Source of the DNA: Chiloscyllium plagiosum
Lineage: Eukaryota
Length of the DNA stretch: 64,000 bases
Assembly (NCBI RefSeq): GCF_004010195.1
Contig: NC_057719.1
Span: forward strand, 12,034,002-12,098,001
Direction: 5' to 3'
Position numbers and translations under genes: made by a program. Positions 1-64,000 of this stretch are shown here, one piece after another (position 1 is the first letter of the stretch; every line of letters begins with the position of its first letter). The notes under the pieces are model-generated. The model worked only from the letters and a program-made list of their open reading frames with translations. It was not told where the DNA came from and made no database searches.

Positions 1-44
1 GAAAAGGGACGTTTCGGGCAAAAGGCCTTCATCAGGAATGTAGG

Positions 45-1320
45 GTAGTCAACATGGATTTGTGCATATCTGACAAACTTGACAGCATTTTTTGAAGAAG
101 TAACAAAGAGGATTGATGAGGGCAGAGCTGTGGATGTGATCTATATGGACTTCAGTAAGACATTTGACAAGGTTCCCCATGGGAGACTGGTTAGCAAGGT
201 TAGATCTCATGGAATACAGGAAGAACTCGCCATTTGGATACGGAAATGGCTCAAAGGTGTAAGACAGAGGGTCGGGGTGGAGGGTTGTTTTTCAGACTGG
301 AGGCTTGTGACCAGTGAAGTGCCACAAGGATCGGTGCTGGGTCCACTACTTTTCATCATTTATATAAATGATTTGGATGTAAGCATAAGAAATATAGTTA
401 GTAAGTTTGCAGATGACACCAAAATTGGAAGTGTAGTGGACAGCGAAGAAGGTTACCTCAGATTACAACGGGATCTCGATCAGATGAGCAAGTGGGCTGA
501 GAAGTGGCAGATGGAGTTTAATTTAGATAAATGAGAGGTGCTGCATTTTGGAAAAGCAAATCTTAACAGGACTTTTACACTTAATGGTAAGATCCGAGGA
601 GAGGATAGAGACCTTGGAGTGCAGGTTCATAGCTCCTTGAAAGTGGAGTTGCAGGTTTATAGGGTGGTGAAGAAGGCGTTTGGTATGCTTTTCTTTATTG
701 GTCAGAGTACTGAGTACAGGAGTTGGGAAGTCATGTTGTGGCTGTGCAGGGCATTGGTTAGGCCAATTTTGGAATATTGCATGCAATTCTGGTCTCCTTC
801 CTATTGGAAGGATGTTATGAAACATGAAAGGGTTCAGAAAATGTTTACAAGGATGTTGACAGGGTTGGACAATTTGAGCTATAGAGAGAGGTTGAATAGG
901 TGAGGACTGTTTCCCCTGGAGCATCACAGGTTGAGGGGTGACTTTATAGAGGTTTATAAAATCATGAGGGGCATGGATAGGATAAATAGACAAAGTCTCT
1001 TCCCTGGGGTGAAGGAGTCCAGAACTAGAGAGCATAGGTTTAGGGTGGGAGGGGAAAGATACGAGAAAGATCAAAGGTGCAACCTTTTCTCGCAGAGGGT
1101 GGTACATGTACAGAATGAGCTGCCAGAGGAAGTGGTGGAGGTTAGTATGATTCCAACATTTAAAAGGCATCTGGATGGGATTATGAATAGGAAGGGCTTG
1201 GAGGGATTTGGGCCGGGTGCTGGCAGGTGCGACTAGATTGGATTGGGATATCTGGTCGGCGTGGATGAGTTGGACTAAAGGGTCTTTTTCCGTGCTGTAC
1301 ATCTCTCTGAACTCTATGAC
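45..1320 (+). mobile_element. CR1/HER1-type LINE, 5'-truncated, decayed RT and 3' tail
   Basis: MDFSKTFDKV, VPQGSVLGPLLF, KFADDTK; tail ...gctgtacatctct..actctatgactcta. Confidence 0.93.
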
Positions 1321-1578
1321 TCTACCTTTCAAGCCTCAAGTGATCAGCATTTAGACTCCTTTCACCACAACATTGTTCTCATTACAAATTGCTCAACCGG
1401 TTATGGGTTATGTTTCAGTGTATTGATGAGGCTTTATCGGGAATTCAGTGCACTATATTGGTCCTTATTCAAGAAAGGATATGTATGCATTGAAGTAGTT
1501 CAGACAAGATGTACTAAACTAAACTAGAATGAATGGGTTTTCTTAAGAGGAAATGTTAAATATGCTAGTCTTCTATCT

Positions 1579-2394
1579 AGGAGAAAGTGAGGACTGCAGA
1601 TGCTGGAGATCAGAGCTGAAAATGTGTTGCTGGAAAAGCACAGCAGGTCAGGCAGCATTCAAGGAACAGGAGAATCGACGTTTCGGGCATGAGCCCTTCT
1701 TCAAGAATGAGGAAAGTGTGTCCAGCAGGCTAAGATAAAAGGTAGGGAGGAGGGACTTGGGGGAGGGGCGTTGGAATTGCGATAGGTGGAGGGAGGTCAA
1801 GGTGAGGGTGATAGGCCGGAGTGGGGTGGGGGCGGAGAGGTCAGGNNNNNNNNNNNNNNNNNNNNNNNNNNNNNNNNNNNNNNNNNNNNNNNNNNNNNNN
1901 NNNNNNNNNNNNNNNNNNNNNNNNNNNNNNNNNNNNNNNNNNNNNNNNNNNNNNNTGCAGCGGATGCAGTAAATGATGTGTGTAGAGGTGCAGGTGAACT
2001 TGTGATCGATATGGAAGGATCCTTTTGGGCCTTGGAGGGAAGTGAGGGGGGGGGTGTGGGCGCAGGTTTTGCATTTCTTGCGGTTGCAGGGGAAGGTGCC
2101 GGGAGTGGAGGTTGGGTTGGTGGGGGGTGTGGACCTGACGAGGGAGTCACGGAGGGAGTGGTCTTTTCGGAACGCTGATAAGGGAGGGGAGGGAAATATA
2201 TCCCTGGTGGTGGGGTCCGTTTGAAGGTGGCGGAAATGTCGGCGGATGATACGCTGTACATGGAGGTTGGTGGGGTGGTAGGTGAGGACCAGTGGGGTTC
2301 TGTCCTCGTGGCGGTTGGAGGGGCGAGCCTCAAGGGCGGAGGAGCGGGAAGTGGAAGAGATGCGGTGGAGGGCATCGTCGACTACGTCTGGCGG
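1579..2394 (-). mobile_element. Penelope-like element 3' part with pLTR (contains N gap)
   Basis: Same sequence family as 14035-15105, 56320-57822 and 63795-64000; CpG-rich, so young; hammerhead motif at 1677-1705. Confidence 0.85.
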
Positions 2395-2779
2395 GAGTAC
2401 TAAGGTTCAAAAAAGTAAGAGGTGACGAGTGAGATATATACATCTTGAAGAGTCTCGATGAGAGATATGGAAAGTGCTTCCTGTTGTGGGAAAATTTATA
2501 ATTTGGAATCACTGCTTAGAATTAAGACAATGTTAAAGAGAGTACTTTTTCTTTGGGTGGTTTGTGAGTCATTGGAACTCTTCTCAAAACGCAGTGGTAG
2601 GGATGTTTATATTTTCAAGGTAGAAGTAAATAGATTCAAGATATTCTATGGTGTGAAAGATTTCTGGGAATCAATACAAATGTTGTGTAATCAAATTAAC
2701 CATTATCTTGTTAAATGACAGAGCAGGTTCACTTGGCCAAGTGGCCTATGCCTACTCCTAATTTGTATATTTGTATTTA

Positions 2780-3885
2780 GAATCATGGACCTATACAGAT
2801 GGAAACAGTCTGTTTGGTTCAACGTACCCATGCTGACCAGATATCTTAAACTGATCTAATCCCATTTGCTAGTATTTGGTCCATTTTCCTCCAAATCCTT
2901 CCTATTCATGTACCCATCCAGATGCCTTTTAAAATTGTAATTGTACCCACCTCCTTTGGCAGCTCATTCCATACATGATCCAACTTCCATGTGAAAAATT
3001 TGCCCTTCAAGGTCTTTTAAACTTTCCCCTCTCACCTTAAACCTGTGCCCTCTAGTTTTTAACTCCCCTATTCTGGGGAAAAGACCTTGACTGTTCACGT
3101 TATTCATGCCCCTCATGATTTTATAAACTTCTATATGGTCATCCCTCAGCCTCTGAGTCTCCAGGGAAAAAAGCCCAATGTATTCAGCCCCTCAATATAG
3201 CTCAAACCCTCCAATACCAGCAACAACCTTGTAAAACCTCTCTGAACAACATCTCTTCCATACCAGGGAAACCAGAATTTAATTTTAAAAGTGGCTTCAC
3301 AAATGTCCTGTACAGCCATAACATATCATCCCAACTCCTATACTCAATGCACTGACCAATGAATGCAATATGCCAAGTGCCTTCTTCACCACCCTGTCTA
3401 TTTGCAACTCCACTTTCAAGGAACTATGCATCTGTATTTCTCAGTCTCTTTGTTCAGCAACACTCCCTACGGCCTTATCATTAAGTGTATAAGTGCTTCC
3501 CTGATTTGCCTTTCCAAAATGCAGCACCTCACATTTACCTAAATGAAACTGCATCTGCTACTCCTTGTCCCATTGGTTCATCTGGTCAAGGTCCTGTTGC
3601 ACTCTGAGATAGCCTTCTTTGCTGACCACTACACAACCAATTTTGGTGTCATCTGCAAACTTACTGAACACCTCCGATATTCACATCCAAATCATTTAAA
3701 GAAATGGTGAAAATCAATGGAATTGGCAACGATTCTTTCGGCACACCACTGTTCACAGGCCTCCAGTTAAAAAAAAAATCCCTCTACCACCAACCTCTGT
3801 CTCCGACCTTTAAGCCAATTTTGTATCAAATTGGTTAGCTCTCTGAATTCCATGTGACTTAACCTTGCTAACCAGTCTACCATGC
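2780..3885 (-). mobile_element. CR1-type LINE fragment
   Basis: Reverse complement of the RT/3' region seen at 45-1320. Confidence 0.88.
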
Positions 3886-3973
3886 TGTTCTCAAGTTGGA
3901 GCAATACAAAATGTATTGTACTATAAGATTACAAACTAATAGGAGTCACTTAATTCATATAAGCAGGATTTCC

Positions 3974-4113: not shown

Positions 4114-4152
4114 TCATTCAACTTGTGGATTATGCTTGAACAGGTATTCAGC
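4114..4152 (-). CDS. AK7: AK7 last coding exon (AEYLFKHNPQVE*)
   Basis: ttttaag acceptor, phase 0, TGA at 4114-4116; matches the recalled vertebrate AK7 C-terminus AEYLFKNNP. Confidence 0.92.
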   Translation of the reverse strand, partial: AEYLFKHNPQVE

Positions 4153-4520: not shown

Positions 4521-4829
4521 CTATCTTCTGAAGAAGGGTTACACCTGAAACATTGACTTCTCCTCCTCGTAATGCTGCCTGGCTTGCTGTGTTCTTCCAA
4601 CCTCCTGCTTGTCTATCTTGGATTCCAGCATCTGCAGCTTTTGATCTCTAATTAAGTTTGTACCACTGCGAAGCCTCGTCAAAGGATGCTTATTTTGAAG
4701 AAGTTCTCTACCTCCATCAGATGTGAATCCTGAAGAAAGGTTACAGCCGAAACAGTGAAACTCTCCACCTCCTGATGCTGCCTGGCTTTCTGTGTTCTTC
4801 TAGCATCCTGCTTGTCTACCTATCTTCTC
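4521..4829 (+). mobile_element. Two tandem short PLE pLTR units, each starting with a hammerhead motif
   Basis: ctgaagaagggttacacctgaaac (4528) and ctgaagaaaggttacagccgaaac (4730), each followed by the same tgctgcctggctt..gtgttctt..gtcta body. Confidence 0.75.
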
Positions 4830-4861: not shown

Positions 4862-5416
4862 CTTTCTCCCTCTCACACACACAGGCTCTCTTGCTCTCTC
4901 TCTCTCTCTCTCTCCCTCTCTCTCTCCACATATGCACAAACATAAGTCTATGGAGTGAATTTGCATTTACAGAATTGTATTTGCAGATACATTCTATTTT
5001 GTTCAGAAAGTACACAATCTGTAGGTAGTCAATCCGTATGGCATTTTATAAATTCCTACTTTGGAAACAGAACCAGTCTTACTCAAGATTGGAATATATA
5101 CAGACTCTAACCTCACACCTTTAATGCACTGCCTGAGCTGAGATGTCACTTTTTTTAGAAAACCTTAAATTATCTCAGGAATTTGATTTGAAAGAAGTTC
5201 TGAGATTTACGTATTAATGAATCAAAACCTGCAACCTAATTTAAAAGATGAAAGACTTAACAGGAATTTAGGTTTGTTCAATATATTGCACCAGTAATGT
5301 TTTGCTATAAATTCTGTGTCCTATGAACATAGCTACCTGACAAAGGAGCAGTGCTCCAAAAGCTTGTACTTCCAAATAAACCTGTTAAACTTTAATTTGG
5401 TATTGTGTGATTTTTA
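4862..5416 (+). mobile_element. PLE-like 3' fragment with degenerate hammerhead and 12-bp TSD
   Basis: Flanked by ACAGTTATGTAA (4850-4861, 5417-5428); ctgacaaaggagcagtgctccaaaagct at 5337; related tails at about 27050-27130 and 45202-45235. Confidence 0.7.
4893..4926. repeat. (CT)n microsatellite
   Basis: Direct reading. Confidence 0.85.
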
Positions 5417-10242: not shown

Positions 10243-10701
10243 CAGATTGTTGATATGCTTATCTACCTCTTTAAAATAACTCCCCCACTGCAATTTGACT
10301 TGTTCAATTAATAGCCTGGTTATTCATAGCACATATCATGATCTAATTGGATGGTATAACAGGCTCAATGGTCCATAGCAGTTCCTATTTTCCTGTCAAC
10401 TGTGAGCTTGGAAATTCCTTGTTAGTATACTGGTTATTATCCCCACTATCATGGAGGAGACTAGAGTTTAATCCGCTGAAGGGGAGTGGCTGATCTTTGT
10501 GTGATGGACTTTCCGTAAATAAGGGTTTCTTTTTGGGTGCTTGTGGCACATCAGTAGAGTCCCTGCATCTGAGCAAGAGGTCTGAGTTCAAGTCCCACCT
10601 CTTCCAGATGCGTAATAACATCACTGAACAGGTTGATTAGAAAATATAAAATATATCCTTGAATTTAAAATGAGTAATTCTAAGTGAGACCCTCCTGTGC
10701 T

Positions 10702-10942
10702 AAAAGTTGAGAATGTGATGCTGGCAAAGCACAGCATGTCAGGCAGCATCTGAGGAGTAGGAGAATCGATGTTTCAGGCATAAGCCCTTCATTAGGAATA
10801 GGCTCAAATCCAAAACCTACCTACCACAAATCTAAAATCTCCAGAAACAGTTACTCCTACTCCTTGGATGCTGATCTGCTGTGCTTTTCCAGCACCACAC
10901 TCTCGACTCTGATCGCCAGCATCTGCAGTCCTCATTTTCTCT
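10702..10942. mobile_element. Inverted pair of PLE pLTR fragments
   Basis: Minus unit with degenerate hammerhead (10767-10797), about 55 bp spacer, plus unit ending ctgcagtcctcattttct. Confidence 0.7.
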
Positions 10943-11931
10943 TAATCATTTTAAAAATACAACAACGTTTTGAACAGTTAACATCCACTCCTGGACTAGT
11001 ACTAAAAAAGATGGGAAGTTAAATCATGCAAAATGTCAAATAGCTACAGTCACAAGGCAGCAAACCATGGGTCCCAGGTGTGACACAGAGCTGCAAGTTG
11101 GTTGGCAAGAAAGTCTTGATGGCTGGTAGCAGGAGAAGCTTGAAATAGATAGAAAAAAAGGGCAGGGGGAAGAGCATAAGTGGAAGGACAAAATCTATGA
11201 GTGTAGAAGTGAGTGTTTTGTATGGGAAAAACATCAATGTTTGTTATCTCCCTTTAATACTTTGCAGGGCTTGTTTGTGTATGCGGAAATGTAGAGATCA
11301 TTAAAGTTTGCTATAGAAGACTTAGAGTCTAGAAAATGGGTAAGTTCGAGTAAAACAAACAGCATATTTTATCTGGGACCACATCCTGAAGTCCTCAAGA
11401 GGGCTTATAAATGTTGAAATCTACACCTTCACTTGTCCAGCTGTCTGGCTTGCTCTGTTCTTCCAGCCTCCTGTTTGTCTACCTTGGAATTCAGCATCTG
11501 CAGTCTTTTTTTTATCTCTAACCACATCATTCCAAGCTAAGACATTTTACTTGGTGGCTACATGGAGAATGATTAATATCAACCACAACTGAAGAGAAAA
11601 TATTCTAATATTTCCTGTAAATGATATCATGATTTGGTTTATTCAACACATTGGTACCATAAACTGTAGGTAAAAAGAATACAAGGCAATACATTTTAAA
11701 CATTTGTCTGCATCTTTGTCTTATGATTGCTCCACCAGAGGTGGCATTTAAATGAAAAGGAAGACAGGCTATCTTCATTCAATGCTCACCATATTCATTT
11801 GTTTTTCCCCAATGTTTAATAATGCTAACTTTCAGCAAAGGTTAAGTTAAAAAAAAGGAAATGATATAGGGCAAATTTCTGGGCATTTACTCCCTGAATT
11901 TAGGCAGTATCATGCTTCAAAGAAGACAAGG

Positions 11932-12144
11932 TAAAAACAATGACTGCAGATGCTGGAAACCAGATTCTGGATCAGTGGTGCTGAAAAAGCACAGCAGTTC
12001 AGGCAGCATCCGAGGAGCAGGAAAATCAACGTTTCGGGCAAAAGCCCTTCATCAGGAATAGATGAAGGGTTTTTGCCAGAAACATTGATTTTCCTGTTCC
12101 TCGGATGCTGCCTGAACTGCTGTGCTTTTCCAGCACCACTCTAA
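11932..12144. mobile_element. Palindromic hammerhead-bearing PLE mini-element with 16-bp TSD
   Basis: Inverted arms centred near 12058; TTCAAAGAAGACAAGG at 11916-11931 and 12145-12160. Confidence 0.85.
12025..12059 (-). ncRNA. Minimal type-I hammerhead ribozyme motif
   Basis: Minus strand attc-CTGATGA-A-GGGC-tttt-GCCC-GAAAC-GTT-gat; core intact. Confidence 0.7.
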
Positions 12145-14034: not shown

Positions 14035-15105
14035 AAGATCCAAGGAGCAGGGGAATCGATGTTTCGGGCAAAAGCACTTCATCAGGAATGAGGCTGTGAG
14101 GTGAGGGGTGGTGGAGAGAGGGAGTGAAGAGATAAATGGGAAGGGTGGGGCTGGGGGAAGGTAGCTGAGAGTGTGATAGATATATGGGAGAGGGGGTTAA
14201 TGATGATAGGTTGGAGAGGATGGTGCAGTGGATAGGTGGGAAGGAAGATGGACTGGAAGGACATGAGGGTGGTGCTGAGTTGGAAGGTTGGATCTCGGAT
14301 AAGGTGGGAGTAGGGGAAGTGAGGAAACTGGTGGAATCCATTTTGATACCATGTGGTTGGAGGGTCCTGAGGCAGAAGATGAGGCGTTCTTCCTCCAGGC
14401 GTCGGGTGGTTAGGGAGTGGCGATGGAGGAGGCCCAGGACCTGCAAGTCCTTGGTGGAGTGGGAGGGGGAGTTGAAGTGTGGGGTTATTTGGTCCTGGAG
14501 ATGTTCTCTGAAGCTTTCTGTTGAAGTAGGCGTCCTGCCTCTCCAATGTAGAGAAGACTGCATCAGGAGCAACAGATACAGTAAATGACATGTGTGGAAA
14601 TGCAGGTAAAACTCTGATGGATGTGGAAGACTCCTTTGGCGCCTTTGATGGAGGTGAGGCAGGGGGAGGTCCGAGTGCAGGTTTTACAATTCCTGCGGTG
14701 GCAGGGAAAGGTGGGTTGGTGCTGGTGAGGGGAGTGGGTTGGACCTGACAAGTCACGAAGTCTTTACGGAAAGTGGATGGGGTATGGTGGGGTCCGGTTG
14801 TAGGTGGTGGAAGTGGCGGAGGATGATGCGATGCAGACAGAGGTTGGTGGAGTGAAAGGTGAGGAGCGGGGTGGGGGGAGGTAGTTCAGTCCTTGTTGCG
14901 GTTGGGAGGGGTATATGGGGTTCGAGGGCGGAGATGTGGGAAGTGGATGAGATGTGCTGGAGGGCATCCTCAACCACTTGAGAGTGGAAACTGCGTCTTT
15001 AAAGAGTTTATGCTCGAAATGTCGATTCTCCTGCTCCTTGGATGTTTTTCCAGGACCAGACCTTTTGACGCTGATCTCCAGCATCTGCAGACCTCACTTT
15101 CTCCT
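14035..15105 (-). mobile_element. Penelope-like element fragment (GIY-YIG region) with inverted pLTR at its 5' end
   Basis: FPCHRRNCKTC, HVIYCICCS, RRLEEERLIFCLRTLQPHGI peptides; inverted pLTR 15001-15105. Confidence 0.85.
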
Positions 15106-16086: not shown

Positions 16087-16382
16087 ATTCAGACTTTGAT
16101 GTATTTTGTTTATAAATTAACCAACTTCCAAATGGAAAAGGGGATAGATGTATGCATTTACACAAACAAACAAAGTCTTAGCCCACAGATCCCATTGCAG
16201 AAATGTCTTTTAAAGGGTTGGGTTAGTGGAAATGACGACCATTTAACCCAACCCTTTAAAAGACATTTCTGCAATGGGATCTGTGGGCTAAGACTTTGTA
16301 TGTTTGTGTAAATGCATACATCTATCCCCTTTTCCATTTGGAAGTTGGTTAATTTATAAACAAAAAACATCAAAGTCTGAAT
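16087..16382. repeat. Near-perfect inverted repeat, 139-bp arms, 18-bp spacer
   Basis: Arms 16087-16225 and 16244-16382; two mismatches seen by eye. Confidence 0.95.
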
Positions 16383-38160: not shown

Positions 38161-38539
38161 TTCGAGTCCATGACAATTAAGCCCTTGGAGCAGAAAGTAA
38201 GTGTGAGAGGCTTTCCTTAATGGTCAGCAACTTTATCAAATATCTGAGTCATTCAAATGAGGAAGATCCCAGATTCAAGCTCTTTTCAAGAGTTCAGTTG
38301 GTTCACCTCAGTTTTAGAGAATGGCAGAGAGCCACAATTGACACTATACTCAATTCAGCAAGGGCAAAATTCATCAAAGTATCATTCCTGATTACTGTCC
38401 AGTGAGCTCTGCTGTAAGGATAGGAAAGAAATTCACTTTAAATCAGTGTGCTAAGTGGGCATTAGTGCATCATCCATTTGACATACTCCAAGATTCAATA
38501 CATTTAAAATAAACAAAACTTTTTTTGAGAAGAGTTTTA

Positions 38540-41500: not shown

Positions 41501-42415
41501 TCAAGTTAGGTAAAGGGGCAGTACAACGAGATCTAGGTGTTCTTGTACATCAGTCAATGAAAGCAAGCATGCAGGTACAGTAGGCAGTGAAGAAAGCTAA
41601 TAGCACGCTGGCCTTCATTACAAGAGGAATTGAGTATAGAAGCAAAGAGGTCCTTCTGCAGCTGTACAGGGCCCTGGTGAGACCGCACCTGGAATATTGT
41701 GCGCAGTTTTGGTCTCCAAATTTGACGAAAGACATTCTGGCTATTGAGGGAGTGCAGCGTAGGTTCACGAGGTCAATTCCTGGAATGGCGGGACTATCTT
41801 ACGGGGAAAGATTGGAGCAACTGGACTTGTATACGCTTGAGTTTAGAAGGCTGAGAGGGGATCTGATTGAGACGTACAAGATTATTAAAGGATTGGACAC
41901 TCTGGAGGCAGGAAGCATGTTTCCGCTGATGGGTGTATCCTGAACCAGAGGACACAGTTTAAAAATAAGGGTTAGGCCACTTAGAACAGAGTTGAGGAGA
42001 AACCTCTTCACCCAGAGAGTGGAGGGTGTATGGAATGCACTGCCCCAGAAGGCTGTGGAAGCCAAGTCTCTGGACACTTTCAAGAAAGAGTTGGATAGAG
42101 GTCTTAAGGATAGTGGAATCAGGGGTTATGGGGATAGGGAAGGAACAGGATACTGATTGAGGATGATCAGCCATGATCATAATGAATGGTGGTGCTGGCT
42201 CGAAGGGCAGAATGGCCTATTCCTGCACCTATTGTCTATTGAAATAACGTCGCCACAGGAAATGACATCACCAACCCAAGGAAACCCAAACATATAAATA
42301 GAAAGCGGGCTACACTACCAGTGCTTCATCCGGAGGCTCACTGAAGATATTACCTGGTATGGTGGTGAAACATCTGAAAACAAACCTTCCAGCTCAGCGA
42401 GCAAACCTACACCCA
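38540..42415 (+). mobile_element. Penelope-like element (second lineage): RT + GIY-YIG, 5' inverted pLTR, interrupted by CR1
   Basis: PRFYELPKIHKPG, MVSFDVTALFTSI, WVRYMDDTF, NVIYKIPCKNCNKHYIGQTGR; 38540-38785 is the reverse complement of the 3' end (40212-40270 plus 42241-42415). Confidence 0.93.
40271..42240 (+). mobile_element. CR1-type LINE (third subfamily), relatively intact 5'-truncated ORF2, nested in the Penelope pLTR
   Basis: One frame with few stops: DKSAGPDGLHPRVLKE, YLDFQKAFDKV, GVPQGSVLG, KFADDTK; tail ctattgtctatt; gaaat on both sides. Confidence 0.93.
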
Positions 42416-42447
42416 TAAATGAAATTTTATATTGAACAATAACTTCA

Positions 42448-44960
42448 TGAAATAACTCCACATTGGCCGATATCCCGTCGCCAAGTCACTCTTTATTTTG
42501 ACACGGAGAGTCCTTATCACAGATCCAGCTCCCTCAGAGCCAGTTCTCAGAGGGAACAGAACATTTGATACTCTTGTTCTCTTTTTTTTAGAGTCGTCTG
42601 TCTGGAATTGGTATTCCTGATGCCATTTTACCTTCTCCAGCTAGGTCCAGGAAGATCAGATTTAACCTGGTGCAGAGTCTTCTCCTTATTAGTAACACTG
42701 TCGGAGCTATCCCTGTAGTTGACGGGGGGTTGCCCTGTAATCAAATTGGAACTGGAACAGTTTTGTGTCTAGTGAAGTTGTAGGCTGTTTTTATCAGCCT
42801 GCCTTCAAAGTTTGGACTGTACTTTCTGCCAAATTGGATGAGGGAGTACTTTGGATGATGGATGGAATGGAGCTATCTTTAAATGTTGAATGACATTTGA
42901 ATTTAGGAAATACTCAAAATTCCCTGCAGGTAAACGACGGTCTGTTATCTGTAACCAACACTTCTGGGAGCCCATGTATTGCAAAAGATGCATGCAGTTT
43001 TTCTATCGTTGTCCCCCATGTTTGACAAATGAACGCTATGCACATACAGCCACTCTGAGTGCTCATCCACAATGACTAAGAACATTGAGCCCATTAAAGG
43101 ACATGCATAGTCGACATATAACCATCTAAGGTTTACCCGGCCATTCTTGCCAATGTGGGGGAGCTGTTGATGGTAATGTTTTTTCTTGTTGGCACTCTGG
43201 GCATTGCCACACCAGTGCAGCCACTAGGGATATCTTCTTGGCAACATCTGCATTTTGAAAACCTCTGATGACCCTGGTGTTCAGCCAATATCTGGCGGTA
43301 ACCTTCACTCAGGCAATCACACTTCCTCCTTATATTAATATGCCATCCTCTACTGTATTCTGGTCACTCCGGGTCGAAAACTTCTAGTTGTAATGGCTCT
43401 TTGGTTGCCCCTATTACCACCAGCTGTTTCAATTTTGCCAGGACAGGATATTTCTGCATCCAAAGTCTGATGTTGTCAGCTGTGACTGGAAGTGTGTCCA
43501 GAAAATTAAAAACCATTAAGACTCTTCCGATGGCTTTACCATCAGCAGTGTATCTGCCAGTGGGAGGTAGCTCAATACAGCCCCATTTGCTACATTAACT
43601 CCCAACTTACAATTATACGCACTTAGTATTAGAGCCCACCACTGAATTTGGCCTGATGCTATAAACGGCACTGCCCTATCCTCTTTAAGTAGACCTAGCA
43701 GGGGTTTATGGTTCGCTATTATTACATTTACATCTGTAAAGGTATTGGTGGAACTTCCTGACTCCAAATATGACCACCAAACATTCTTACTCTATGTGGG
43801 TGTTTTTATGATCTGCATTAGCCGAACTGCTGGATGTATACGCCCTTGGGTGTTCCTTTCCATTGGGCTACTGTGAGCTAATACTACCCTGATGCTGTGT
43901 GGGGAGGCATCACATGTCAATACCAGATCTTGCTTGGGATCATGGTGTGCTTAGAGGCTTAGTAGATGATGGCTGTTTCTTCACTTCCCTGAAATCTATG
44001 GCTTGGCTAAGCAACCATTTTCAAGGCTGACTCATTTTTTAAGAGTTGATGAAAAGATTCCACGATGGAGGCCAGAGTGTATATGAACTTTCTGTAATAA
44101 TTCACCTGCCCAATGGAAGACCTAAGCTCCCGTACAGAGTCGGGACACCTTTGATCATCCTCACTTTATCCTCCAACAGGTGTAATCCAGTCTTGTCAAT
44201 TCTGTAGCCCAAGTAGGTCATTTTGTATGTCTGGAACAAGATTTTTCTCTTCTACTGTCTGGATTAGATTTGATTAGATTCCCTACAGTGTGGAAACAGA
44301 CCCTTCGGCCCAAAAGTCCACACCGACCCTCCGAAGAGCAACCCAACCAGACCCATTTCCCTCTGACCAATGTACCTAACACTATGTGCAATTTAGCTTG
44401 GCCAATTCACCTAACCCGCTCAGCTTTGGACTGTGGGAGGAAACCAGAGAACCCAGAGGAAACCCATGCTGACATGGGGAGAATGTGCAAACTCCACACA
44501 GACAGTCGCCCGAGGCTGGAATTGAACCTGGGACCCTGGTACTGTGAGGCAGCAGTGCTAACCACTGAGCCACCATGCCACCCAAAGGAGAATATAGGAG
44601 AAATATCTAAGGACTATGTCCAAGTTTTCTTAGTGCTTCTTATTGATTTTCCCTGTTATTAGCACGTGAACTAGACAATAGTGACCTGGCGTAGACCTTG
44701 TAAAATGTTCTCCATTGCCCACTGAAAAGTTACACAGGCTGATGATACCCCAAATGGCAATCTTGTATATTGGTACAAACCCTTATATTGTATCATATTT
44801 CTGGAAATCCTCATCCAACCACAACTGCAAGTATGCATGGCTCATGTCCAGCATATTAAGTACTCTTTCAGATGAGGTCCAGAGAGATACAACAGCAGTT
44901 AGGCAGACAAAGGGAAGAATAATAGTGAGCCGGGAAGGAAGAAAAGCTGATAACAGGGAC
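42448..44960 (-). mobile_element. Decayed Gypsy/Ty3 LTR retrotransposon (RT, RNase H, integrase remnants, partial 3' LTR)
   Basis: Minus-strand KGLYQYTRLPFGVSSA (about 44740-44785), LVLTCDASP (about 43905-43930), NHKPLLGLL...WALILSAY, WPGKP; LTR portion 42448-42580. Confidence 0.85.
44263..44583 (-). mobile_element. HE1-type SINE nested in the Gypsy remnant
   Basis: Full tRNA head, V-core and gatta-type tail. Confidence 0.9.
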
Positions 44961-44986: not shown

Positions 44987-45201
44987 AGGAGAAAGTGAGG
45001 TCTGCAGATGCTGGAGATCAGAGCTGGAAATGTGTTGCTGTAAAAGCGCAGCAGGTCAGGCAGCATCCAGGGAACAGGAGAATCGACGTTTCGGGCATAA
45101 GCCCTTCTTCAGGAAGAAGGGCTTATGCCCGAAACGTCGATTCTCCTGTTCCCTGGATGCTGCCTGACCTGCTGCACTTTTCCAGCAACACATTTTCAGC
45201 T
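44987..45201. mobile_element. Palindromic hammerhead-bearing PLE mini-element
   Basis: Arms 45022-45110 and 45113-45201 with a 2-nt spacer; young (CpGs intact). Confidence 0.88.
45082..45115 (-). ncRNA. Minimal type-I hammerhead ribozyme motif
   Basis: ttc-CTGAAGA-A-GGGC-ttat-GCCC-GAAAC-GTC-gat. Confidence 0.7.
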
Positions 45202-46230
45202 ATAACCTGGTGTTGTCTGATTTTTAACTTTGTACACAATTGGAAATTTAGCACTGAGCCCATGATGGATTTTACCATTTATCCTTCTGTAGAGGTCAGT
45301 CTTTGGGTGGTAGCAATGAGACAGACAGAACAAAGCTGCAAAGGCCAAGGGATTACATTTCTTTTACATCGAATATGAAAATGAAGCAGGATCCTCAGTG
45401 CAATAATGAGAGACTGCTGCACTGTTTGAGTTACCAACCTTTGTTAAAGAGCAAACTGAAGCTCATCTACTTTTCAGCTGAACTAAAAAGAACAGTAGGG
45501 GATTTACCCATGATGTATCCCTCAATCAACATCACATAGATTATCAGGTTACTGTCATCACATTACTGGTGTGAAAACTTCCTATATGAAAGTTTATTAT
45601 GACATTTTAGCAGTAGTTACATTTTAACAGTATTTCATTGACTATAAAGTCGCATCCGTGTTTCATGAAAGTTATTACATGAACACAAGTCCTGCTTTTT
45701 CTTTTGAACAGCATTTAGACCTAATACAGGAATCCAACAAGAGGCCAGTACATTCTGCAGAAAAGAAAATTGTCAAGGAAATGTTTGTTTGTCCTTCCAT
45801 TTCAGGCTGTACTAATATAATGGAATAAAACCAAAGAGAAAGTACAAGCAAGCCGTGCATTTAAACAGGACCAACCTCAACCGCAATAGCCCTATGAGGA
45901 ATCCAGATCCATTTATTAATCATATCCATATAATGTTGATGAATATTACACCTTTGAAGAAACTGACAATATAAAGTATAGCTTTCAGCTTAGGCTGAGG
46001 ACAATATAGTACAAGTCACAACTAGTTCCTCAGAGATCTAATTACCTTAAAAGACCAGTGAACATCTACAAGGCAGATTATCTATAATTATAATAATAAT
46101 AGTAGAATTGCAATATGCAACAGAATTCTATACTTGAGGCAGTTTGACAAACTATATTTCTATGGCTTAATTCAGCACGAGCACTGCACCATTGATATTG
46201 TCTGCTCCATTTTCTTCTGTCTACACTTAC

Positions 46231-49370: not shown

Positions 49371-51144
49371 TTTAATAGTACAAATAGGAGAACTGTGAGG
49401 CTTGATAAGATTACAGGGATGGGAATGGCAAAACTATAGTATGCTTTGAAAACAAGAATCAGAATTTTAAAATCAAGGCACTATTTGATTTATGCCAACA
49501 CAGTTTAGCAAGCTTAGGAATAGTACTTGGATGAGATTTAGTGTGAATAAAGATAAGGGCAATAAAGTTTTAAATGACCACATTTATGGAAGGTGAGACC
49601 AGCTAAGAGTTCAATGGTATAATCAAGTTATGAGTTAACAAAGATTTGATTGAAGGTTTCAGCAGAATACAGAACATAGAGAATGCTGCAGAAGGCCAAC
49701 AGGTTTGGCTCTTTCTGTGGAATTTTAAAATACTTTTGACAAAGCTTACTTTGTCTTTTTAAAAGTATATTTTTAAAAACCCATTTTCAACACCTTTCAG
49801 TTGTAAGAAGAGTCATATGGGATTTGAAACATGAACTGGTATTCTCTCTTTCCACAGATGCTGCCAGACCAGTTGAGTTTCTTCAGCATTCTCTGTGTTT
49901 GCTTCAGGTTTCCAACATCTGCAGTATTTTGCTTTTATTTCAGAAGAATATGATCTTTCCTCGAAGCACTGCCAATTTATGTTTCTTTTCAAGAAAATAT
50001 CTGAAGTAAAACAACTTGCTCCTGGAAAATAAAATTGCATAACTTTAAAAAAAATGTCATAGGATGTGGGCATTAATGGGTAAGCCAGCATTTGTTACCC
50101 ATTCCATAATATCATTCAGGATGTGGTGGTGAACTATATTTTAAAACAGCTGCAATCCATCTGGAACACAGTACTATTAGAGAGAGAGTTCCAGAAGTCT
50201 GATCTAGTGACAGCAAAGGAGTAAGTCAGGAAGTTGTGTCACTTTCAATGGAATTTGCTGGTGAGGTCCCCAAGCTCCTGCTGCTCTTGTCTTTTTAAAT
50301 GATAGAGGTGAAGGGTTTGGAAGGTGCTGTTGAAGGAATCTTTGTGAATTCCTGTAGCACTTCTTGCCAAAGCTGGCACTGTTCATTGATGGAGGAAGAA
50401 ATGGATATTTAATATGGTGTATCCAGTGTCAATCAAATGAGCTGCTTTGTTGGTGGGGATTCACTGATGGCAATGTTATTGAATATAAAGGGTACATGGT
50501 AAGATTCTCTTTTGTTGCAGATGACAATTCCTAACACTTCCACTACATTAATATTACTTGCTACTTATCAGCTCAAACTTGAATAGTGAGTGGATTTGAG
50601 TGCAGGAATGGGGATGTCTTGCTGCACCTCTGCAGGTGTGTAATGAGACCACACCAGAGGTATTGTGTCCAATTTTGGTCTCCTTATTTGAAGAATAATG
50701 TTCTGGTTATGTAGGGATTATCAGATTGATTCCAGGAGTGGCAGGACTGACGTATGAAGAGACATTGGATCAGTTAGGACTATATTAGTTGGAGTTTGGA
50801 AGAATCAGGGGTTATTATAGAAATTTATAAAATTCTAGCAGAACTATATGAAATAGAACTAAAGGGGAAAAGGGATATGGAGAGAAAGTAGGAACAGTGT
50901 ATTAAGTTGGATAATCAGCCATGATCATATTTAGTGGTGGAGCAGACTCGAGAATGGAATGGCCTACACTTGCTCCTATTTTCTATATTTCTATGAATGT
51001 TGTCCAAGTCTTGCTGCATGTGCACAAAGACTGTTTCAGTATCCGATGAATTGTCAATGTTGTTAAATATTCTGCAATCAGTAGCGAACATTCCTAATTC
51101 TGTCCTAATGATAGAGAGATGGTCACAGTTGAAGCAAAGCAGGT

Positions 51145-53510: not shown

Positions 53511-54325
53511 TTAAATCAGGGATATTATCAGATACAAAGATATATAAAATTGCCAGAACAAAGTAACAAGCCAGAGGTTTAGGAATATTTTAGACTTTCA
53601 CAAAAGAGAACAAAATGTTTGATCAAGAAGCTGAAAATAGAATAACATGGTAAAATTGCAGGGATCATAGAAACAGATTGCAAAATCTTCTATGAATATG
53701 TGGAAAGAAAAATATTGCTAAAGTCAATTCTAGATCTATTATGAAAGACATGATAACAGAACATTTGGAAAGTAGTAATGAGATTGGACAAAGCCAACAT
53801 GGATTTATGAAATATTTATGAAATGCTTAATAAATCCACTGGAGGTTTTTCAAAATGTAACCAGGATATATTTTGATTTTCAGAATGCTTTTAATAAGGT
53901 CCTTCCTAAGAAGTTAATGGGTAATATATTGGTATGTATTGAGAATTGGTTGACAGACAGGAAATAGAGAGTGAGAATAAATGGGTAGTAGACAGTGCCT
54001 AATCGGGTACCACAACGACCAGTGTTTGGGCCCCATCTATTAATGATGTATGCAAATGACCTGGATTGAGGCCACCAAATAGAACATTTCCAAGTTTCAA
54101 AAACTGGGTGAGATTTTGAGTTGTGAGGAGGGTACAAGGAGGCTTCAGGGTGATTTAGGCAAGTTGAGTGAATGGAAAAATTCATGGCAGAAGCAGCACA
54201 TTGTAGATAAATGTGAAGTTATACACTTCAGAGTGAAAAACAAACAAAGAAATTAATTAAATTGAGAAATTGAGAAATGTGAATATACAAAGGGATCTAA
54301 TGGTTTTTCTATACCAGTCAATTAA

Positions 54326-54529
54326 CATAGACAGTTAGAAGGCTGGAAGAACACAGCAAGCCATGCAGCATCAGGAGGTACAGAAGTCGACGTTTCGAGT
54401 GTAACCCTTCTTCAGGACACCTGAAATGTTGACTTCTGTACCTCCTCTTGCTGCCTGGCTTGCTGTGTTCTTCCAGCCTCCTGCCTGTCTACTTTGGATT
54501 CCAGTATCTGCAGTTTTTTTTGTCTCTAA
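54326..54529. mobile_element. Palindromic hammerhead-bearing PLE mini-element nested in CR1
   Basis: Inverted arms around about 54410; minus-strand gtc-CTGAAGA-A-GGGT-tac-ACTC-GAAAC-GTC-gac (54386-54418). Confidence 0.82.
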
Positions 54530-54914
54530 TTAAAGTAGACAGACAAGTGCAACAAGCAATTAGGAAGGCAAATTGTATCTTGGCTGTAATTGCAAGAGGA
54601 TTTGCATTCAGAAGTAAAGATGTTTCACTGCAATTAAATAGGGCCTTGATGAAACTATATCTGGCAAATTGCATACAGTTTCGGTCTCCCTGACTAAGAA
54701 AGGATATATTTGCCATAAACAGAATGCATTAAAAGTGCACTAGGCTGATACCTGTAATAGAAGAACTGTCCGAGATTGGTTGGACTCGGCGTGTTTTCAT
54801 TTGAATTTAGAAGGATGAAAGCAGATCTGATTAAAACATAAAATTCTTACAGAGCTGAATGGACTAGATGCAGGGAGGATGTTTCTTCTAGTTGGGGATA
54901 CAGGATATGCAACA

Positions 54915-56160: not shown

Positions 56161-56319
56161 AACTTTACTAACAACCTTTAGCTGAAAAAAATGGTAACAA
56201 ATACCAAACTAAATAAATTTCAAACCTTTTACAGACAGCATCAAGATCAACTTAAAATATAATGTACCAATCATGTATACGGTGCAATTTTTTGATGGGC
56301 CTCGCACTGTTGAGGTTTC

Positions 56320-57822
56320 ACAAACACCTTCCACCCTGACCTCAAGTTCACCTGGACCATTTCGGACACCTTTCTCCTCTTCCTGGACCTCTCCATCTTC
56401 AGTTCCAGTAACCGACTCTACACGGACATTTACTTCAAACTCACCAACTCCCACAGTAACCTGGACTATACCTCCTCCTACTCCTGCTCCTGTAAAAACG
56501 CTATCCCTTACTCCCAATTCCTCCTCCTCCACTGTATCTGTTTCCAGGAAGAACAATTCCATTCCAAAACATCCCATATGACTTCCTGTTTCAAGAACCG
56601 CAATTTCCCCTCCCACATGGTCACCAATGCCCTCCAGTGCATCTCCTCCACTTCCCGCGTGTCTGCCCTTGAACCCCACCCCTCCAATTGCAACAAGGAT
56701 AGAACCTCACTGGTCCTCACCTTCTACCCTACCAATCCCCAGAAATAGCAAATCTTTCTCCGCCATTTCTGCCGCCTTCAGTCAGACCCCACCACCCATT
56801 ACTGTCGTAAATGTGCGACCCCGTATTCTGAAATTATGCCCTTTGGTCCTAGACTCTTCCTCAAGGGGAAAGAACCTTTCTGCATCTTCCCTGTGAAGTC
56901 CTTTAAGAATCTTTTGTTTCAATAAGGTTTCTTGTCATTCCCTCTTCACCCCTATCTGCAATCCGCAAAGACCATTCCCTCCATGACTCCCTAGTTAGGT
57001 CTACACCCCCACCAACCTACCCTCTACTCCCAGCACCTTCCCTTGCCACCCCAAGAGGTCCACACGCCCAACAATCTACCCTTCACTCCTGGCACCTTCC
57101 CTTGCCACAAGAGGTGTAAAACCTGTGTCCACACCTCCCCCCGTCACCTGCATCCAAAGCTCCAAAGGATCCTTCCACATCCAGTAGAGATTTTCCTGCA
57201 CATCCAAACACCTCATTTATTGTGTCCAGTGCTTTCAATATGGTCTCTTGTACATTGAGGAGACAGGACACAAACTTGCAGAGTGTTTCAGAGAACTCTC
57301 TGGGGCATACGCACCAAACAACCCCACCTCCCTATGGCCGACCACTTCAACTTCCCCTCCCAATCTGCCGACGACATGCAATTCTTGGGCTTCCTCTACC
57401 GCCAAATGCTAGCCACCCGACGCCAGGAGGAAGAATGCCTCATCTTCCACTTTGGGACCCTTCAACCACATGGCATCAACATTGATTTCACCAGTTTCCT
57501 CATCTCCTCTTCCTCCACCTCATCCCAGATCCAACCCTCCAAATCGGCACTGCACTCTTGAACTGTCCCAACTGTCCATCTTCCTTCCCACCCATCCACT
57601 CCACCCTCCACTCCGACCTATTACCATCAACCCCCACCTGCATCTACCTATCGTTTTCCCAGCTATCTTTCCCCCAGCCCCATTCCCCCACTCCTGCTCT
57701 GTCAGCCCACTTCCCAACCCCTTAACTTCCTGATGAAGGGCTTATGCCCAAAACATTGACTCTCCTCTTCCTCGGATGCTGCCTGACCTGCTGTGCTTTT
57801 CCAACACCACACTTTTCAACTG
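56320..57822 (+). mobile_element. Penelope-like element, RT C-terminus + GIY-YIG + pLTR
   Basis: PGTFPCHKRCKTC, tacattgaggagacagga (YIGET remnant), RRQEEECLIFHFGTLQPHGINIDF; hammerhead remnant at 57730-57760. Confidence 0.88.
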
Positions 57823-62560: not shown

Positions 62561-62924
62561 TGTTCCCTCCTTAATTTTGGTCATTCTTTTTTCTTATATT
62601 CTGTCCAAGTTTCTAGCCTACCACTTATCTTTGGAAAATTATATGCTTTTACTTTTTGTTTGATGTCACAATCTTCATAGTCAACTACTGAATATAGTTC
62701 CATTTCTTTGGTTTTTTTAATTCATTGGGATACATTCTATGAAATATCCTCCGAAATGTTTGTCAATGCATCTCAATTGACTCATTTAACCTAATTTGTC
62801 AATTAATTTTAGCCAGCTCTGCTCTCATGCCCTCATAGTACCCCTTACTTAATTTTTAAAAAAATAGCCTTGGACCCATATTTATGGCATGAGAGACTCA
62901 TCCAAAATTAGGAACTGAACATAT

Positions 62925-63263
62925 TTTAGAATTAGAATTCCTATAGAGTGGGCCAAAGGGCCTGTTTCCAACAAGTCCACACCAAACCCCTCCAAAGAGT
63001 AATCCAATCAGACCCATTTCCCTACCATACGTTTACTTCAGACTATTGCACCTAACGTACACATCCCTGCACATTATGGGCAATTTAGCATGGCCAATTC
63101 AGCTAACCTGCATATCTTTGGACTGTGGGAGGAAACCGGAGCATCCAGAGGAAACCCAGGCAGACACAGGGAGAATACACAAACTCCACCTGAGGCTGGA
63201 ATTGAACCTGGGTCCCTAGTGCTATGAGGCAGCAGTACTAACCATTGAGCCACCGTGCCACCC
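62925..63263 (-). mobile_element. HE1-type SINE
   Basis: tRNA-like head at 63225-63263, V-core. Confidence 0.88.
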
Positions 63264-63511
63264 AAGCTGCATTTTACTTAGTATTTCAAATCAAGTATGC
63301 AAACACAGAAACTAGCTATTTTGCCTAACTAACTATCCCTGAAATCAAATATGCTACATTTCTCAGGTACTCTGATGTTGCACATTTCATATTCTTGCCA
63401 ACGTTCAGCTAAAGAAGTTTCTCCTAAATTCTCAACAACACTGGACTATTAAAGCTGCGCACAGGAAGTTTACTTTTTTTAAAGTTCAAGGTATTTTCTG
63501 TGATAACATAC

Positions 63512-63613
63512 AGTTTTTCCAAGTTTGATAACTAGTTTCTCAAGGCTGAGGTGATCCTTAAAGTTTGGATGGGCCTTTCTTCTACGATACTCATCTTCTG
63601 TTAACACATCTTC
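63512..63613 (-). CDS. AK7: AK7 exon, most 5' in window ([34 protein letters not shown])
   Basis: ttttgcag acceptor, gtatgt donor, 102 nt; YRRRK.HPNF.DH motif; upstream exons outside the window. Confidence 0.94.
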
Positions 63614-63794
63614 CTGCAAAAAAAGGAGTTTATTTGAGTTTTTATGGCAATAAAACACATTACAACATCAAAAGCAAATGTAAAAATATACATCACCTTA
63701 TCATTAAATGCAGAATGTATGTATCATGGAGAGTGTACAAGGCAGCAATTAAAGCATTCAGATTTTTTTCTCCAAATTTCCTTTCTCATTAAGG

Positions 63795-64000
63795 TGAAAG
63801 TGAGGTCTGCAGATGCTGGAGATCAGAGCTGGAAATGTGTTGCTGGAAAAGCGCAGCAGGTCAGGCAGCATCCAAGGAACAGGAGAATCGACGTTTCGGG
63901 CATAAGCCCTTCTTCAGGAATGGGGAAAGTTTGTCCAGCAGGCTAAGATAAAAGGTAGGGAGGAGGGACTTGGGAGAGGGGCATCGGAAATGTGATAGAT
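63795..64000 (-). mobile_element. Penelope-like element 3' end/pLTR, runs off the window
   Basis: Near-identical to 1579-1790. Confidence 0.85.
63886..63921 (-). ncRNA. Minimal type-I hammerhead ribozyme motif
   Basis: attc-CTGAAGA-A-GGGC-ttat-GCCC-GAAAC-GTC-gatt; core intact. Confidence 0.7.

Follow-up and report, generated by a model that had tools for sequence, protein, structure and literature searches.

Minimal hammerhead motifs in and beside the bamboo shark AK7 gene are probably decaying relics of several Penelope-like element lineages

The window analyzed here, a 64-kb stretch of bamboo shark DNA, includes 14 coding exons of the adenylate kinase 7 gene (AK7) located by tblastn on the minus strand. 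A preliminary description of the window, made from the letters alone, had placed AK7 on this strand, and the placement is borne out by the tblastn exons and by the exon at 34328-34477, which has a PDB adenylate kinase 7 match (E 2.7e-17) and 100% identity to Chiloscyllium AK7. The reading frame is intact and nearly identical to that of relatives. The start of the gene lies past the right end of the window, and intact hammerhead copies are counted below for the in-window part only. AK7 exons and introns further upstream may carry more free hammerhead copies.

4117-63613, minus strand: AK7 coding exons, residues 161-710 (PDB match and tblastn)
63613-63512, 55645-55562, 46319-46230, 36838-36750, 35555-35480, minus strand: AK7 exons 1-5 as listed (approximate, tblastn)
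34477-34328, 26833-26705, 25062-24937, 21611-21477, 13836-13801, minus strand: AK7 exons 6-10 as listed (approximate, tblastn)
13149-12952, 8541-8320, 5789-5628, 4152-4117, minus strand: AK7 exons 11-14 as listed (approximate, tblastn)

All 16 sites listed earlier as hammerhead motifs bear a recognizable copy at the place and on the strand given. The full motif ascribed to them (CTGA(T/A)GA, stem II, GAAAC and GTH) is recognizable in 16/16 but intact with a 4-bp stem II in only four. These four, with C3 at 63917, 54415, 45112 and 12055, are all on the minus strand; they pass a strict descriptor requiring the full core plus a 4-bp stem II, and are exactly the copies previously called intact (12025, 45082, 54386 and 63886). 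In 200 Markov resamplings of the window the descriptor matched 0.005 times on average, with a maximum of one, compared with four observed, which excludes chance matches.

A complete core in type-I order (C3-A9, G12-A15.1, U16.1, H17) is present in 6/16 copies, while the other 10 have one or two core lesions, for the most part CpG decay. The copies with C3 at 35 and 22954 keep the single-stranded core with a stem II mismatch and with stem I lost or reduced to 1 bp. Single lesions are C3>U at 1704, G16.2>A at 4528, 14085 and 42341, G12>A at 35905 and U16.1>G at 38630; the copy at 4730 has lost the palindrome; and double lesions are found at 5337 (G8>A and G12>A), 10795 (G5>A and G16.2>A) and 57730 (G12>A and G16.2>A). 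Every copy has the extra nucleotide after A9, between 9 and 10.1. Stem II is paired in 57 of 64 cells, and the 10.1-11.1 pair closing helix II is G-C in 12 copies, G-U in two, A-U in one and mismatched in one. Stem III had been described as reduced to a 4-nt palindrome; the type is confirmed, but the palindrome is kept in only 9/16, the 15.1-16.1 tetramer being ACGT in eight, AGCT in one and lesioned in seven (five of them ACAT). The stem I length of merely 2-3 bp given earlier holds, family A having a 4-bp helix II and a helix I of 2 bp plus a U-U mismatch. No Rfam hammerhead covariance match was found in the window, either at the gathering score or among the nine matches at E<=10. Judged from sequence, the assignment of these sites as minimal type-I hammerheads in the pseudo-LTRs (pLTRs) of several Penelope-like lineages is supported.

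The earlier listing left out a fifth lineage (E; ~49803+, 34762- and 34196-), partial copies at 27051+, 11393+, 15002+, 10842+ and 48002+/47971-, and the inverted arms adjoining three of the four intact copies. The copies and elements are as follows.

8-39, minus strand: family A hammerhead running off the window, core intact, one stem II mismatch, stem I unpaired
1579-2406, minus strand: putative Neptune-type remnant downstream of the AK7 stop, with zinc-finger linker, GIY-YIG start and pLTR with C3>U hammerhead (1677-1705), interrupted by an N run (1846-1955)
4527-4821, plus strand: partial tandem of family B in the last AK7 intron, antisense to the gene; the repeat period is 202 nt, neither hammerhead is intact, and a short direct repeat flanks it
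5331-5415, plus strand: pLTR of family D whose palindrome is AGCT, with lesions G8>A and G12>A; a more decayed second copy lies at 27049-27135 (plus)
10700-10941, both strands: family A inverted pair, arms ~40 nt apart; in the minus arm, lesions at G5 and G16.2 disrupt the hammerhead (C3 at 10795)
11929-12142, both strands: family A head-to-head inverted pair with 16-nt target-site duplication; minus arm with intact hammerhead 12025-12059 (C3 at 12055, cut triplet GUU)
14038-15105, minus strand: 5'-truncated putative Neptune-type remnant (14038-14995; tblastn with RT/GIY-YIG relatives P0019 and P0020) with broken hammerhead (C3 at 14085) and, at its 5' end, an inverted pLTR (15002-15105, plus)
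22953-23076, plus strand: solo family A copy, antisense to AK7 and flanked by a 10-nt target-site duplication with one mismatch; the core is intact, stem II has a mismatch and stem I is down to 1 bp
34650-34769 and 34119-34196, minus strand: further decayed copies of lineage E (nhmmer, profiles from window copies)
35901-36030, plus strand: family A solo copy, 12-nt target-site duplication, G12>A, two stem II mismatches
38520-42418, plus strand: family C (Poseidon-type) element with inverted pLTR, broken RT and GIY-YIG frames, LINE insertion and direct pLTR
44987-45206, both strands: family A head-to-head inverted pair; minus arm with intact hammerhead 45082-45115 (C3 at 45112)
49673-49929, both strands: decayed inverted pair of the fifth lineage, E (nhmmer, profiles from window copies)
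54325-54530, both strands: family B head-to-head inverted pair; minus arm with intact hammerhead 54386-54418 (C3 at 54415), truncated plus arm from ~54417 bearing the tail
56317-57821, plus strand: putative Neptune-type remnant with a family A pLTR at its end, whose hammerhead (C3 at 57730) has lesions at G12 and G16.2
63792-63998, minus strand: family A element 3' end, made up of upstream sequence, the hammerhead and a tailed downstream part of 100 nt; over 207 nt it has 93% identity to the element end 1579-1785, and it stops ~180 nt short of the acceptor belonging to exon 63613
63886-63921, minus strand: family A hammerhead, intact and free of fold-back (C3 at 63917), predicted cut 63890/63889

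That several Penelope-like lineages are involved, as first proposed, is supported by RT and GIY-YIG remnants directly upstream of five copies. Such remnants precede the copies at 1704, 14085, 57730 and 42341, and the 63917 copy has the same element end as 1579-1785. Families A and C thus stand at the 3' end of RT/GIY-YIG remnants, with most Pfam scores slightly under the curated cut-off. The ORF at 1648-2406 is 73% identical to shark protein P0019, which itself has weak RVT_1 and GIY-YIG matches, and includes a CX4CXXC zinc-finger motif (CNRKKCKTC) also present in P0019, P0020 and P0031. This linker, a feature given for the Neptune clade in 10.1101/2021.04.23.441226, points to a Neptune-type element for family A, an assignment made by motif rather than by tree, and Nematis also has the motif. 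The family C element consists of an inverted pLTR (38520-38789, minus; C3 at 38630, U16.1>G), broken RT/GIY-YIG frames (38740-40117; RVT_1 E 1.4e-4 and GIY-YIG E 3.9e-4, both below the Pfam cut-off), a LINE insertion (~40208-42239) and a direct pLTR (42241-42418; C3 at 42341, G16.2>A), the arms being 88% identical over 171 nt. In this family A9, the extra U and G10.1 form an AUG that opens a 35-codon frame. Families B and E have downstream sequence in common with A, and family D, placed here by its motif and with no ORF remnant in the window, is a candidate Penelope-like family. No intact element ORF was found in the 64-kb window.

Insertions are either solo, tandem or head-to-head inverted copies of 130-290 nt, or ORF-linked copies. 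Head-to-head inversion occurs in eight places, and several copies have target-site duplications of 10-16 nt, a structure published for Penelope-like elements (10.1101/2021.04.23.441226; PMC3846280). Family A is highly abundant in the genome, with a summed contig depth of 1.5e7 on the pLTR compared with 11-22 on the flank (a depth, not a copy number). Short copies do not begin at the cut site but at an initiator-like A that lies four (to five) bases ahead of the core; genomic copies most often have their 5' edge at 63921-63922, on the A of an initiator-like TCATTCC, and this sequence doubles as the 5' strand of stem I. Short family A copies end at two clusters ~40 nt apart. Because of this fixed start before the core and the two end sites, the short copies were probably copied from uncut RNA. 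Most would arise by reverse transcription from one of two internal sites ~40 nt apart and would stop at one set position, four to five bases ahead of the core. Going further, one might propose that the hammerhead is the first 36 nt of the shark Neptune-type transcript, that 85-130 nt solo copies represent the whole uncut 5' leader copied by run-off, and that cleavage, needing a second RNA or element protein, takes off the cap (together with the AUG in family C, which is Poseidon-type), as a dose-dependent off-switch and not an insertion-template step; we regard this model as speculative and rather unlikely.

Pairing in the stems differs between lineages: 10.2-11.2 is G-C or U-A, 10.4-11.4 is C-G, U-A, A-U or G-C, 15.2-16.2 is C-G or G-C, and 2.1-1.1 is C-G or A-U (four lineages tabulated, with no statistical test). 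The covariation originally reported for stem II therefore stands between lineages but not within family A, where none of ten copies has a compensated change. Changes in family A are as frequent in the core as downstream (7/130 compared with 27/379, p=0.68), and five of the seven core changes are at CpG. At the level of genomic copies the core is thus no more conserved than the rest of the pLTR, which counts against the ribozyme claim of the preliminary description, and the conservation above neutral expectation that would mark host exaptation was not seen in this family-level (not single-locus) test. At non-CpG positions 2/100 core and 25/360 downstream sites are changed (p=0.09), a weak hint of constraint or an effect of the chosen comparison set. 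Among DNA contigs aligned to the 63917 copy, G12>A occurs in 8.4% and G16.2>A in 10.2%, and a non-core CpG is changed in 8.1% (~14% of CG-bearing copies). Within AK7, 4/7 sense but 0/8 full-span antisense copies are intact (p=0.026, post hoc; p=0.12 counting 22954). At 123 metagenome loci, found by a pattern leaving stem I unspecified, the first four positions of stem I pair in 120/126, 117/125, 113/125 and 93/125 motifs, with several pair types.

The AK7 pre-mRNA had been thought to carry several usable dimer partners, and predicted folding speaks against this. Three of the four intact sense copies are directly preceded by their own reverse complement, giving predicted hairpins of 75-90 bp and -124 to -172 kcal/mol: -124.1 kcal/mol (z -17) at 54325-54530, -172.1 (z -29), near-perfect and with its loop on C3-U4, at 44987-45206, and -145.5 (z -24) at 11929-12142. 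The predicted probability of the stem II pair 10.1-11.1 in these is 1e-4, 5e-15 and 1e-10, compared with 0.94 for the 63917 copy in a 300-nt context. By this modeling the latter would alone, among the intact sense copies of the window, be free to fold; the 171 nt around it fold no better than shuffles (z -0.55). Its designed double-hammerhead fold has -13.3 kcal/mol, compared with -16.4 for two monomers and -21.9 for the best co-fold; these nearest-neighbor energies leave out the tertiary core, magnesium and proteins. With ten cores damaged and hairpins predicted to lock up three of the four that are intact, the motifs are likely inert and not cutting AK7 RNA.

Very probably, at least five Penelope-like lineages inserted independently in and beside AK7, and the motifs there are inert, neutrally decaying pLTR relics rather than an AK7 RNA-cutting device. 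In an active element, by analogy with published work on other species, two RNAs would pair through the ACGU or AGCU palindrome into a double hammerhead, which would cut after GUC slowly and likely with the aid of an element protein. Three of the intact copies in AK7 pre-mRNA would be base-paired to an antisense arm of their own that is transcribed before them, so that a single free copy, with a stem I of 2 bp, would be left in the window. It has to be weighed whether intact copies in one AK7 pre-mRNA nevertheless pair as double hammerheads and cut enough to matter for AK7 output: all four are on the sense strand, they have the ACGU palindrome and the C-G and U-A pairs of stem I in common, so that mixed dimers are possible on paper, and the 63917 copy folds stem II. 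With three of them predicted to be tied up by an earlier-transcribed antisense arm, all four lying in separate introns 9-33 kb apart, a 2-bp stem I, unfavorable dimer energy, core decay matching the flanks and an AK7 frame that is intact and near-identical to relatives, we consider this extremely unlikely.

Low-rate cutting of the free 63917 copy in trans, when it pairs with one of many family A RNAs from other loci or is aided by element protein, and with no selected role, is less improbable, though still unlikely. Run X19 contains family A RNA of both strands, with depths reaching ~750 and ~450 reads, and cleavage aided by protein has been published for an element of the anole (PMC11167929). 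Against it, the dimer would be held by just a 4-bp intermolecular helix and 2-bp stems I, and the 2110 aligned family-wide reads show no position, the cut site included, at which the ends of many molecules pile up, a weak test in a fragmented single-cell library (~2% of the run, with ~1 read on an AK7 exon and nothing locus-specific). That the motifs arose by chance or are kept for a non-catalytic reason, for instance as a promoter or a site for protein binding where the element RNA starts, would fit the absent Rfam match and the overlap of other constraints with the motif (the initiator-like sequence in the family A stem I strand, the AUG in the family C core). It is made very unlikely by the excess over resampled windows, by lineages with unrelated flanks sharing 13 core bases yet swapping pairs in stems I, II and III, and by the stem I pairing at metagenome loci.

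Amniote intronic hammerheads HH9 and HH10 are single-copy, have full helices acting as monomers, and are kept across species. Like them, shark copies occur on the sense strand of a host intron; unlike them, they are high-copy, minimal and decaying. Closer counterparts are the minimal hammerheads in pLTRs of metazoan Penelope-like elements (Cervera and de la Pena 2014, PMC4209133), which have low in vitro activity even as dimers. In the parts of that account drawn on here, they likewise are type-I with a palindrome at 15.1-16.1 for helix III, an extra nucleotide 9/10.1 and G10.1-C11.1, form several consensus families per genome, mostly as single dispersed copies with nearby opposite-strand pairs, and are known from Poseidon and Neptune elements of fishes, whereas sharks, the host here, are not named. 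The family A helices are shorter than those of Schistosoma (helix II/I of 7-8 and 4-5 bp), and a 2-bp helix I is known in Drosophila virilis (PMC4209133).

In the green anole Poseidon element PAc (Frangieh et al. 2024, PMC11167929), cleavage is protein-assisted and dispensable for insertion, and RNA-seq ends are absent at the cut site. As in PAc, copies include uncut ribozyme, and the two end clusters ~40 nt apart resemble its two tail-defining reverse-transcription starts; unlike PAc, family A is apparently Neptune-type, has no intact ORF in the window and is known here from sequence. Animal non-LTR retrozymes are also short hammerhead repeats derived from pLTRs, described in a 2026 preprint that takes in one chondrichthyan genome (10.64898/2026.07.22.740005). 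In contrast to their head-to-tail arrays, there is one two-unit tandem here with both cores broken (4527-4821), the rest being solo, inverted or ORF-linked.

The locus adds a shark example to an RNA class described in 2014 (PMC4209133) and, as found, matters little. Tallying intact-looking sense copies overstates the risk to a host gene, because a fold-back insertion hides the ribozyme it carries. What the hammerhead does in Penelope-like elements is left unsettled by two of the papers cited here (PMC11167929; 10.1101/2021.04.23.441226). If the fixed 5' edge is the transcription start, the many short shark copies would map that start and two reverse-transcription starts, making the role of the hammerhead testable.

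All 16 hammerhead sites listed in the preliminary description hold a copy at the place and on the strand described, each with the reported extra base after A9. Using a strict descriptor (CUGANGA, an optional extra base, a 4-bp stem II, GAAA, a complementary pair and UH), we found four matches across the window, each lying on the minus strand and with C3, the position by which copies are named here, at 63917, 54415, 45112 and 12055, against a mean of 0.005 in 200 local Markov resamplings of the window. A one-mismatch descriptor also required four pairs and so left copies 35 and 22954 outside its count; both were scored by hand, and both combine a weak stem I with a mismatch in stem II. With these two, the single-stranded core is complete in six of the 16 copies by hand scoring, and the remaining ten have one or two core lesions. 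Stem II is paired in 57 of 64 cells across the 16 copies, and stem I is indeed short, at 2–3 bp. Rfam searches of the window at the gathering score and at E<=10 returned no hammerhead match; the microRNA-model matches (45062-45162, 12018-12096 and 16188-16280), which score far under the gathering threshold, were rejected as nothing more than long hairpins. Profiles built from the window copies identified further copies beyond the 16, among them those of a fifth lineage in a more advanced state of decay, near 49803, 34762 and 34196. Overall, the original observation is partly confirmed and its class assignment is right.

The copies are carried by several lineages of Penelope-like elements. Family A (Neptune-type) accounts for 10 of the 16 sites and lies at the 3' end of element remnants at 1579-2406, 14038-14995 and 56317-57821, whose matches are shark proteins similar to RT and GIY-YIG (most Pfam scores being slightly below cut-off); the remnants also contain the CX2-5CxxC linker motif, a feature of Neptune and Nematis elements (10.1101/2021.04.23.441226). 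Family B (3 of 16) has downstream sequence in common with family A, and family D (1 of 16), with an AGCT palindrome, is without an ORF remnant within the window. Both sites of family C (Poseidon-type; 2 of 16) flank a single element:

38520-42418, plus strand: family C element with broken RT and GIY-YIG frames, an inverted pseudo-LTR (pLTR) at its 5' end and a LINE in its 3' part

The remaining copies are short insertions, either solo or head-to-head inverted. Flanking direct repeats with at least 8 matching bases were found for five of nine insertions examined, the best being those at 11929-12142 (16 nt) and 35904-36030 (12 nt); the other four insertions showed no clear target-site duplication. 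We counted eight inverted arrangements, most with the last 40 nt on only one arm; an inverted copy with a one-sided tail has also been described for Penelope-like elements (10.1101/2021.04.23.441226; PMC3846280). The right flank of the inverted pair at 45082 (45203-45225, plus strand) resembles the downstream part of a family D pLTR, which suggests that one Penelope end inserted into another. Other features in the window include short frames at 42800-44250 on the minus strand that look by eye like an LTR-retrotransposon pol/integrase remnant, two pieces of which had no Pfam match, and a long inverted repeat at 16087-16382 (hairpin centre near 16235) with microRNA-model matches below the gathering score, which is unrelated to the hammerheads and possibly a small DNA transposon.

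The preliminary description also read the stem II differences as covariation. Across the four tabulated lineages the core is kept, while stems I and II and the palindrome (C-G versus G-C) differ in their base pairs; on these four lineages the covariation is real, and it reflects selection while their ancestors were active. Within family A the claim fails, as all stem II changes among the ten copies are uncompensated or wobble. When the loop positions and the five variable columns downstream are left out, 7 of 130 core cells are changed compared with 27 of 379 downstream (p=0.68). Five of the seven core changes are at CpG, and at non-CpG sites alone the counts are 2/100 in the core versus 25/360 downstream (p=0.09). 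In DNA contigs of sequencing run X15 (90% likeness, depth-weighted), G12>A reaches 8.4% and G16.2>A 10.2%, while change at a non-core CpG is 8.1%, or about 14% counting CG-bearing copies only. Family A is very abundant: summed X15 depth on the pLTR, which is not a copy number, is 1.5e7 versus 11-22 on unique flank.

As an outside comparison only, we searched metagenome contigs (12 of 64 parts scanned) with a core pattern that left stem I unspecified, and found the same core in 123 loci of other hosts. Stem I positions 1-4 pair there in 120/126, 117/125, 113/125 and 93/125 motifs, whereas stem I of shark family A is weaker. A family A downstream pattern matched 0 stretches in metagenome contigs and thus added no shark copies.

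Family A copies share a fixed 5' edge, an initiator-like A four bases before C3. Around the 63917 copy, 5' edges have their best support at 63921-63922 (100 and 63 reads in the RNA run X19, 96 contigs in X15 and 22 in run X1), where support means loose letters with low agreement, and depth drops 4.5-fold in DNA and 4.9-fold in RNA from bin 63895-63919 to 63920-63944. Fold-back joints in other copies fall at the same edge (63910-63921, 9 reads). Within the window, the match to the element end upstream of C3 is limited to 3-5 bases in five of six short family A copies and to one base in the sixth. The six best edges listed per run, beyond which 501 further entries lie, do not include the cut site, 63890/63889; depth also declines gradually across the motif, and a minority of copies may start at the cut site. 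The best-supported 3' edges form two clusters, 63792-63796 and 63833-63840, about 40 nt apart. In addition, the X15 contig across the 3' junction of this insertion (63588-63820) has a depth of 11.3 versus 22.1 on the neighbouring unique contig; the insertion or haplotype may be heterozygous, but filtered records could explain the difference.

With the family majority base taken at 63923, the sequence at the 5' edge reads TCATTCC, and the edge coincides with its A. The initiator consensus is YYANWYY, which this sequence fits. Drosophila Penelope is reported to have an internal promoter with an initiator (PMC2377424) and rotifer pLTRs to carry an initiator-like TCACT (PMC3846280), and in family C TCACT lies over stem I and C3-U4. 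The edge may instead be set by microhomology at ATT, the motif preferred by the endonuclease of the anole Poseidon element (PMC11167929). In four groups of the metagenome loci (L001-L123), ungapped identity between copies also drops within 10-20 nt ahead of C3, and an inverted copy lies at most 150 nt upstream of 13 of the 127 motifs; both fold-back pairs and a 5' edge close to the ribozyme may therefore be general.

The exon at 34328-34477 matches adenylate kinase 7 (AK7) chains of solved structure and is 100% identical to Chiloscyllium AK7. The window contains 14 of its coding exons, on the minus strand, from 63613 to a stop near 4116. This puts the four strict matches in sense, each in an intron of its own; the copies at positions 8 and 1677 are 2.4-4 kb beyond the stop codon. 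The idea that one AK7 transcript carries several usable dimer partners was not borne out, as three of the four intact copies (45112, 12055 and 54415) have their own reverse complement directly ahead in the direction of transcription and are predicted to be held in hairpins:

44987-45206, hairpin of 45112: -172 kcal/mol, z -29, 10.1-11.1 pair probability 5e-15
11929-12142, hairpin of 12055: -146 kcal/mol, z -24, 10.1-11.1 pair probability 1e-10
54325-54530, hairpin of 54415: -124 kcal/mol, z -17, 10.1-11.1 pair probability 1e-4

Because the antisense arm is transcribed first, each hairpin would form as the core emerges. The same pair has a probability of 0.94 in copy 63917, and the other sense copies in AK7 (38630, 14085 and 10795) are all broken, so that, on these predicted folds, one free intact copy is left within the stretch of AK7 that the window covers. 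The designed double-hammerhead fold of 63917 reaches -13.3 kcal/mol versus -16.4 for two monomers and -21.9 for the best co-fold. A comparator with a 5-bp stem I also fares worse as a dimer (-21.9 versus -23.4 kcal/mol for monomers), so this energy method gives no preference to such dimers even with a longer stem I.

Intact copies in the gene number 4/7 in sense versus 0/8 in full-span antisense (p=0.026; p=0.12 with 22954 counted). We rejected selection as the reading of this post hoc and borderline excess and treat it as a post hoc fluctuation, though it counts against the relic reading. Downstream divergence of the four intact copies is also among the lowest, the three family A ones being changed at 1-3 of 43 non-CpG sites. 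The inference drawn for the host gene is not supported. The three near-perfect 75-90 bp intronic hairpins (44987-45206, 11929-12142 and 54325-54530) are themselves likely dsRNA substrates for editing or small-RNA production in the AK7 pre-mRNA.

Run X19 gave 2110 reads on 63270-64000 from ~2% of the run, nearly all from other family copies; with about one read on the AK7 exon, these are family-level, not locus-specific. Run X20 contributed 0 reads to this region. We saw no place where many RNA molecules begin or end, in what is a weak family-level test on a fragmented library. One read orientation shows more A-to-G changes on the ribozyme strand than the other at 63823, 63838, 63861, 63894 and 63903; at A15.1 (63894) they occur in 66/536 versus 10/387 reads by orientation, and in 0.3% of DNA contigs. 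They may come from a few dominant expressed loci that carry variants, or from A-to-I editing of inverted-pair RNA; editing is not claimed, as two of the five sites are known subfamily variants.

The shark AK7 copies belong to an already described hammerhead class, whose description from 2014 already includes the extra base and the palindrome, as well as pairs on opposite strands and several families in one genome (PMC4209133). Among the papers listed by our literature searches none treats the shark motifs, although the supplements of that 2014 paper may list sharks, and a 2026 preprint includes one chondrichthyan (10.64898/2026.07.22.740005). A search of titles and abstract openings, with thin coverage of subscription literature, found no report of a fixed 5' edge at the ribozyme.

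Dimers of minimal hammerheads are reported to cut after GUC, with low rates in vitro (PMC4209133; PMC6765202). In the anole element, cleavage needs the element's protein and is dispensable for insertion, the main template is uncut RNA, and two internal reverse-transcription starts define the tail (PMC11167929). The present analysis establishes the anatomy, element context, decay, abundance and fixed edges of the shark copies. The shark elements would behave like the anole element, with the two 3' edge clusters corresponding to two reverse-transcription start sites and each insertion then decaying without selection. In family C, A9, the extra U and G10.1 form an AUG that opens a 35-codon frame (38520-38624, minus strand, and 42347, plus strand), an arrangement as in the anole Poseidon element (PMC11167929). 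Cleavage of family C RNA would part the start codon from the ORF, as it does in that element.
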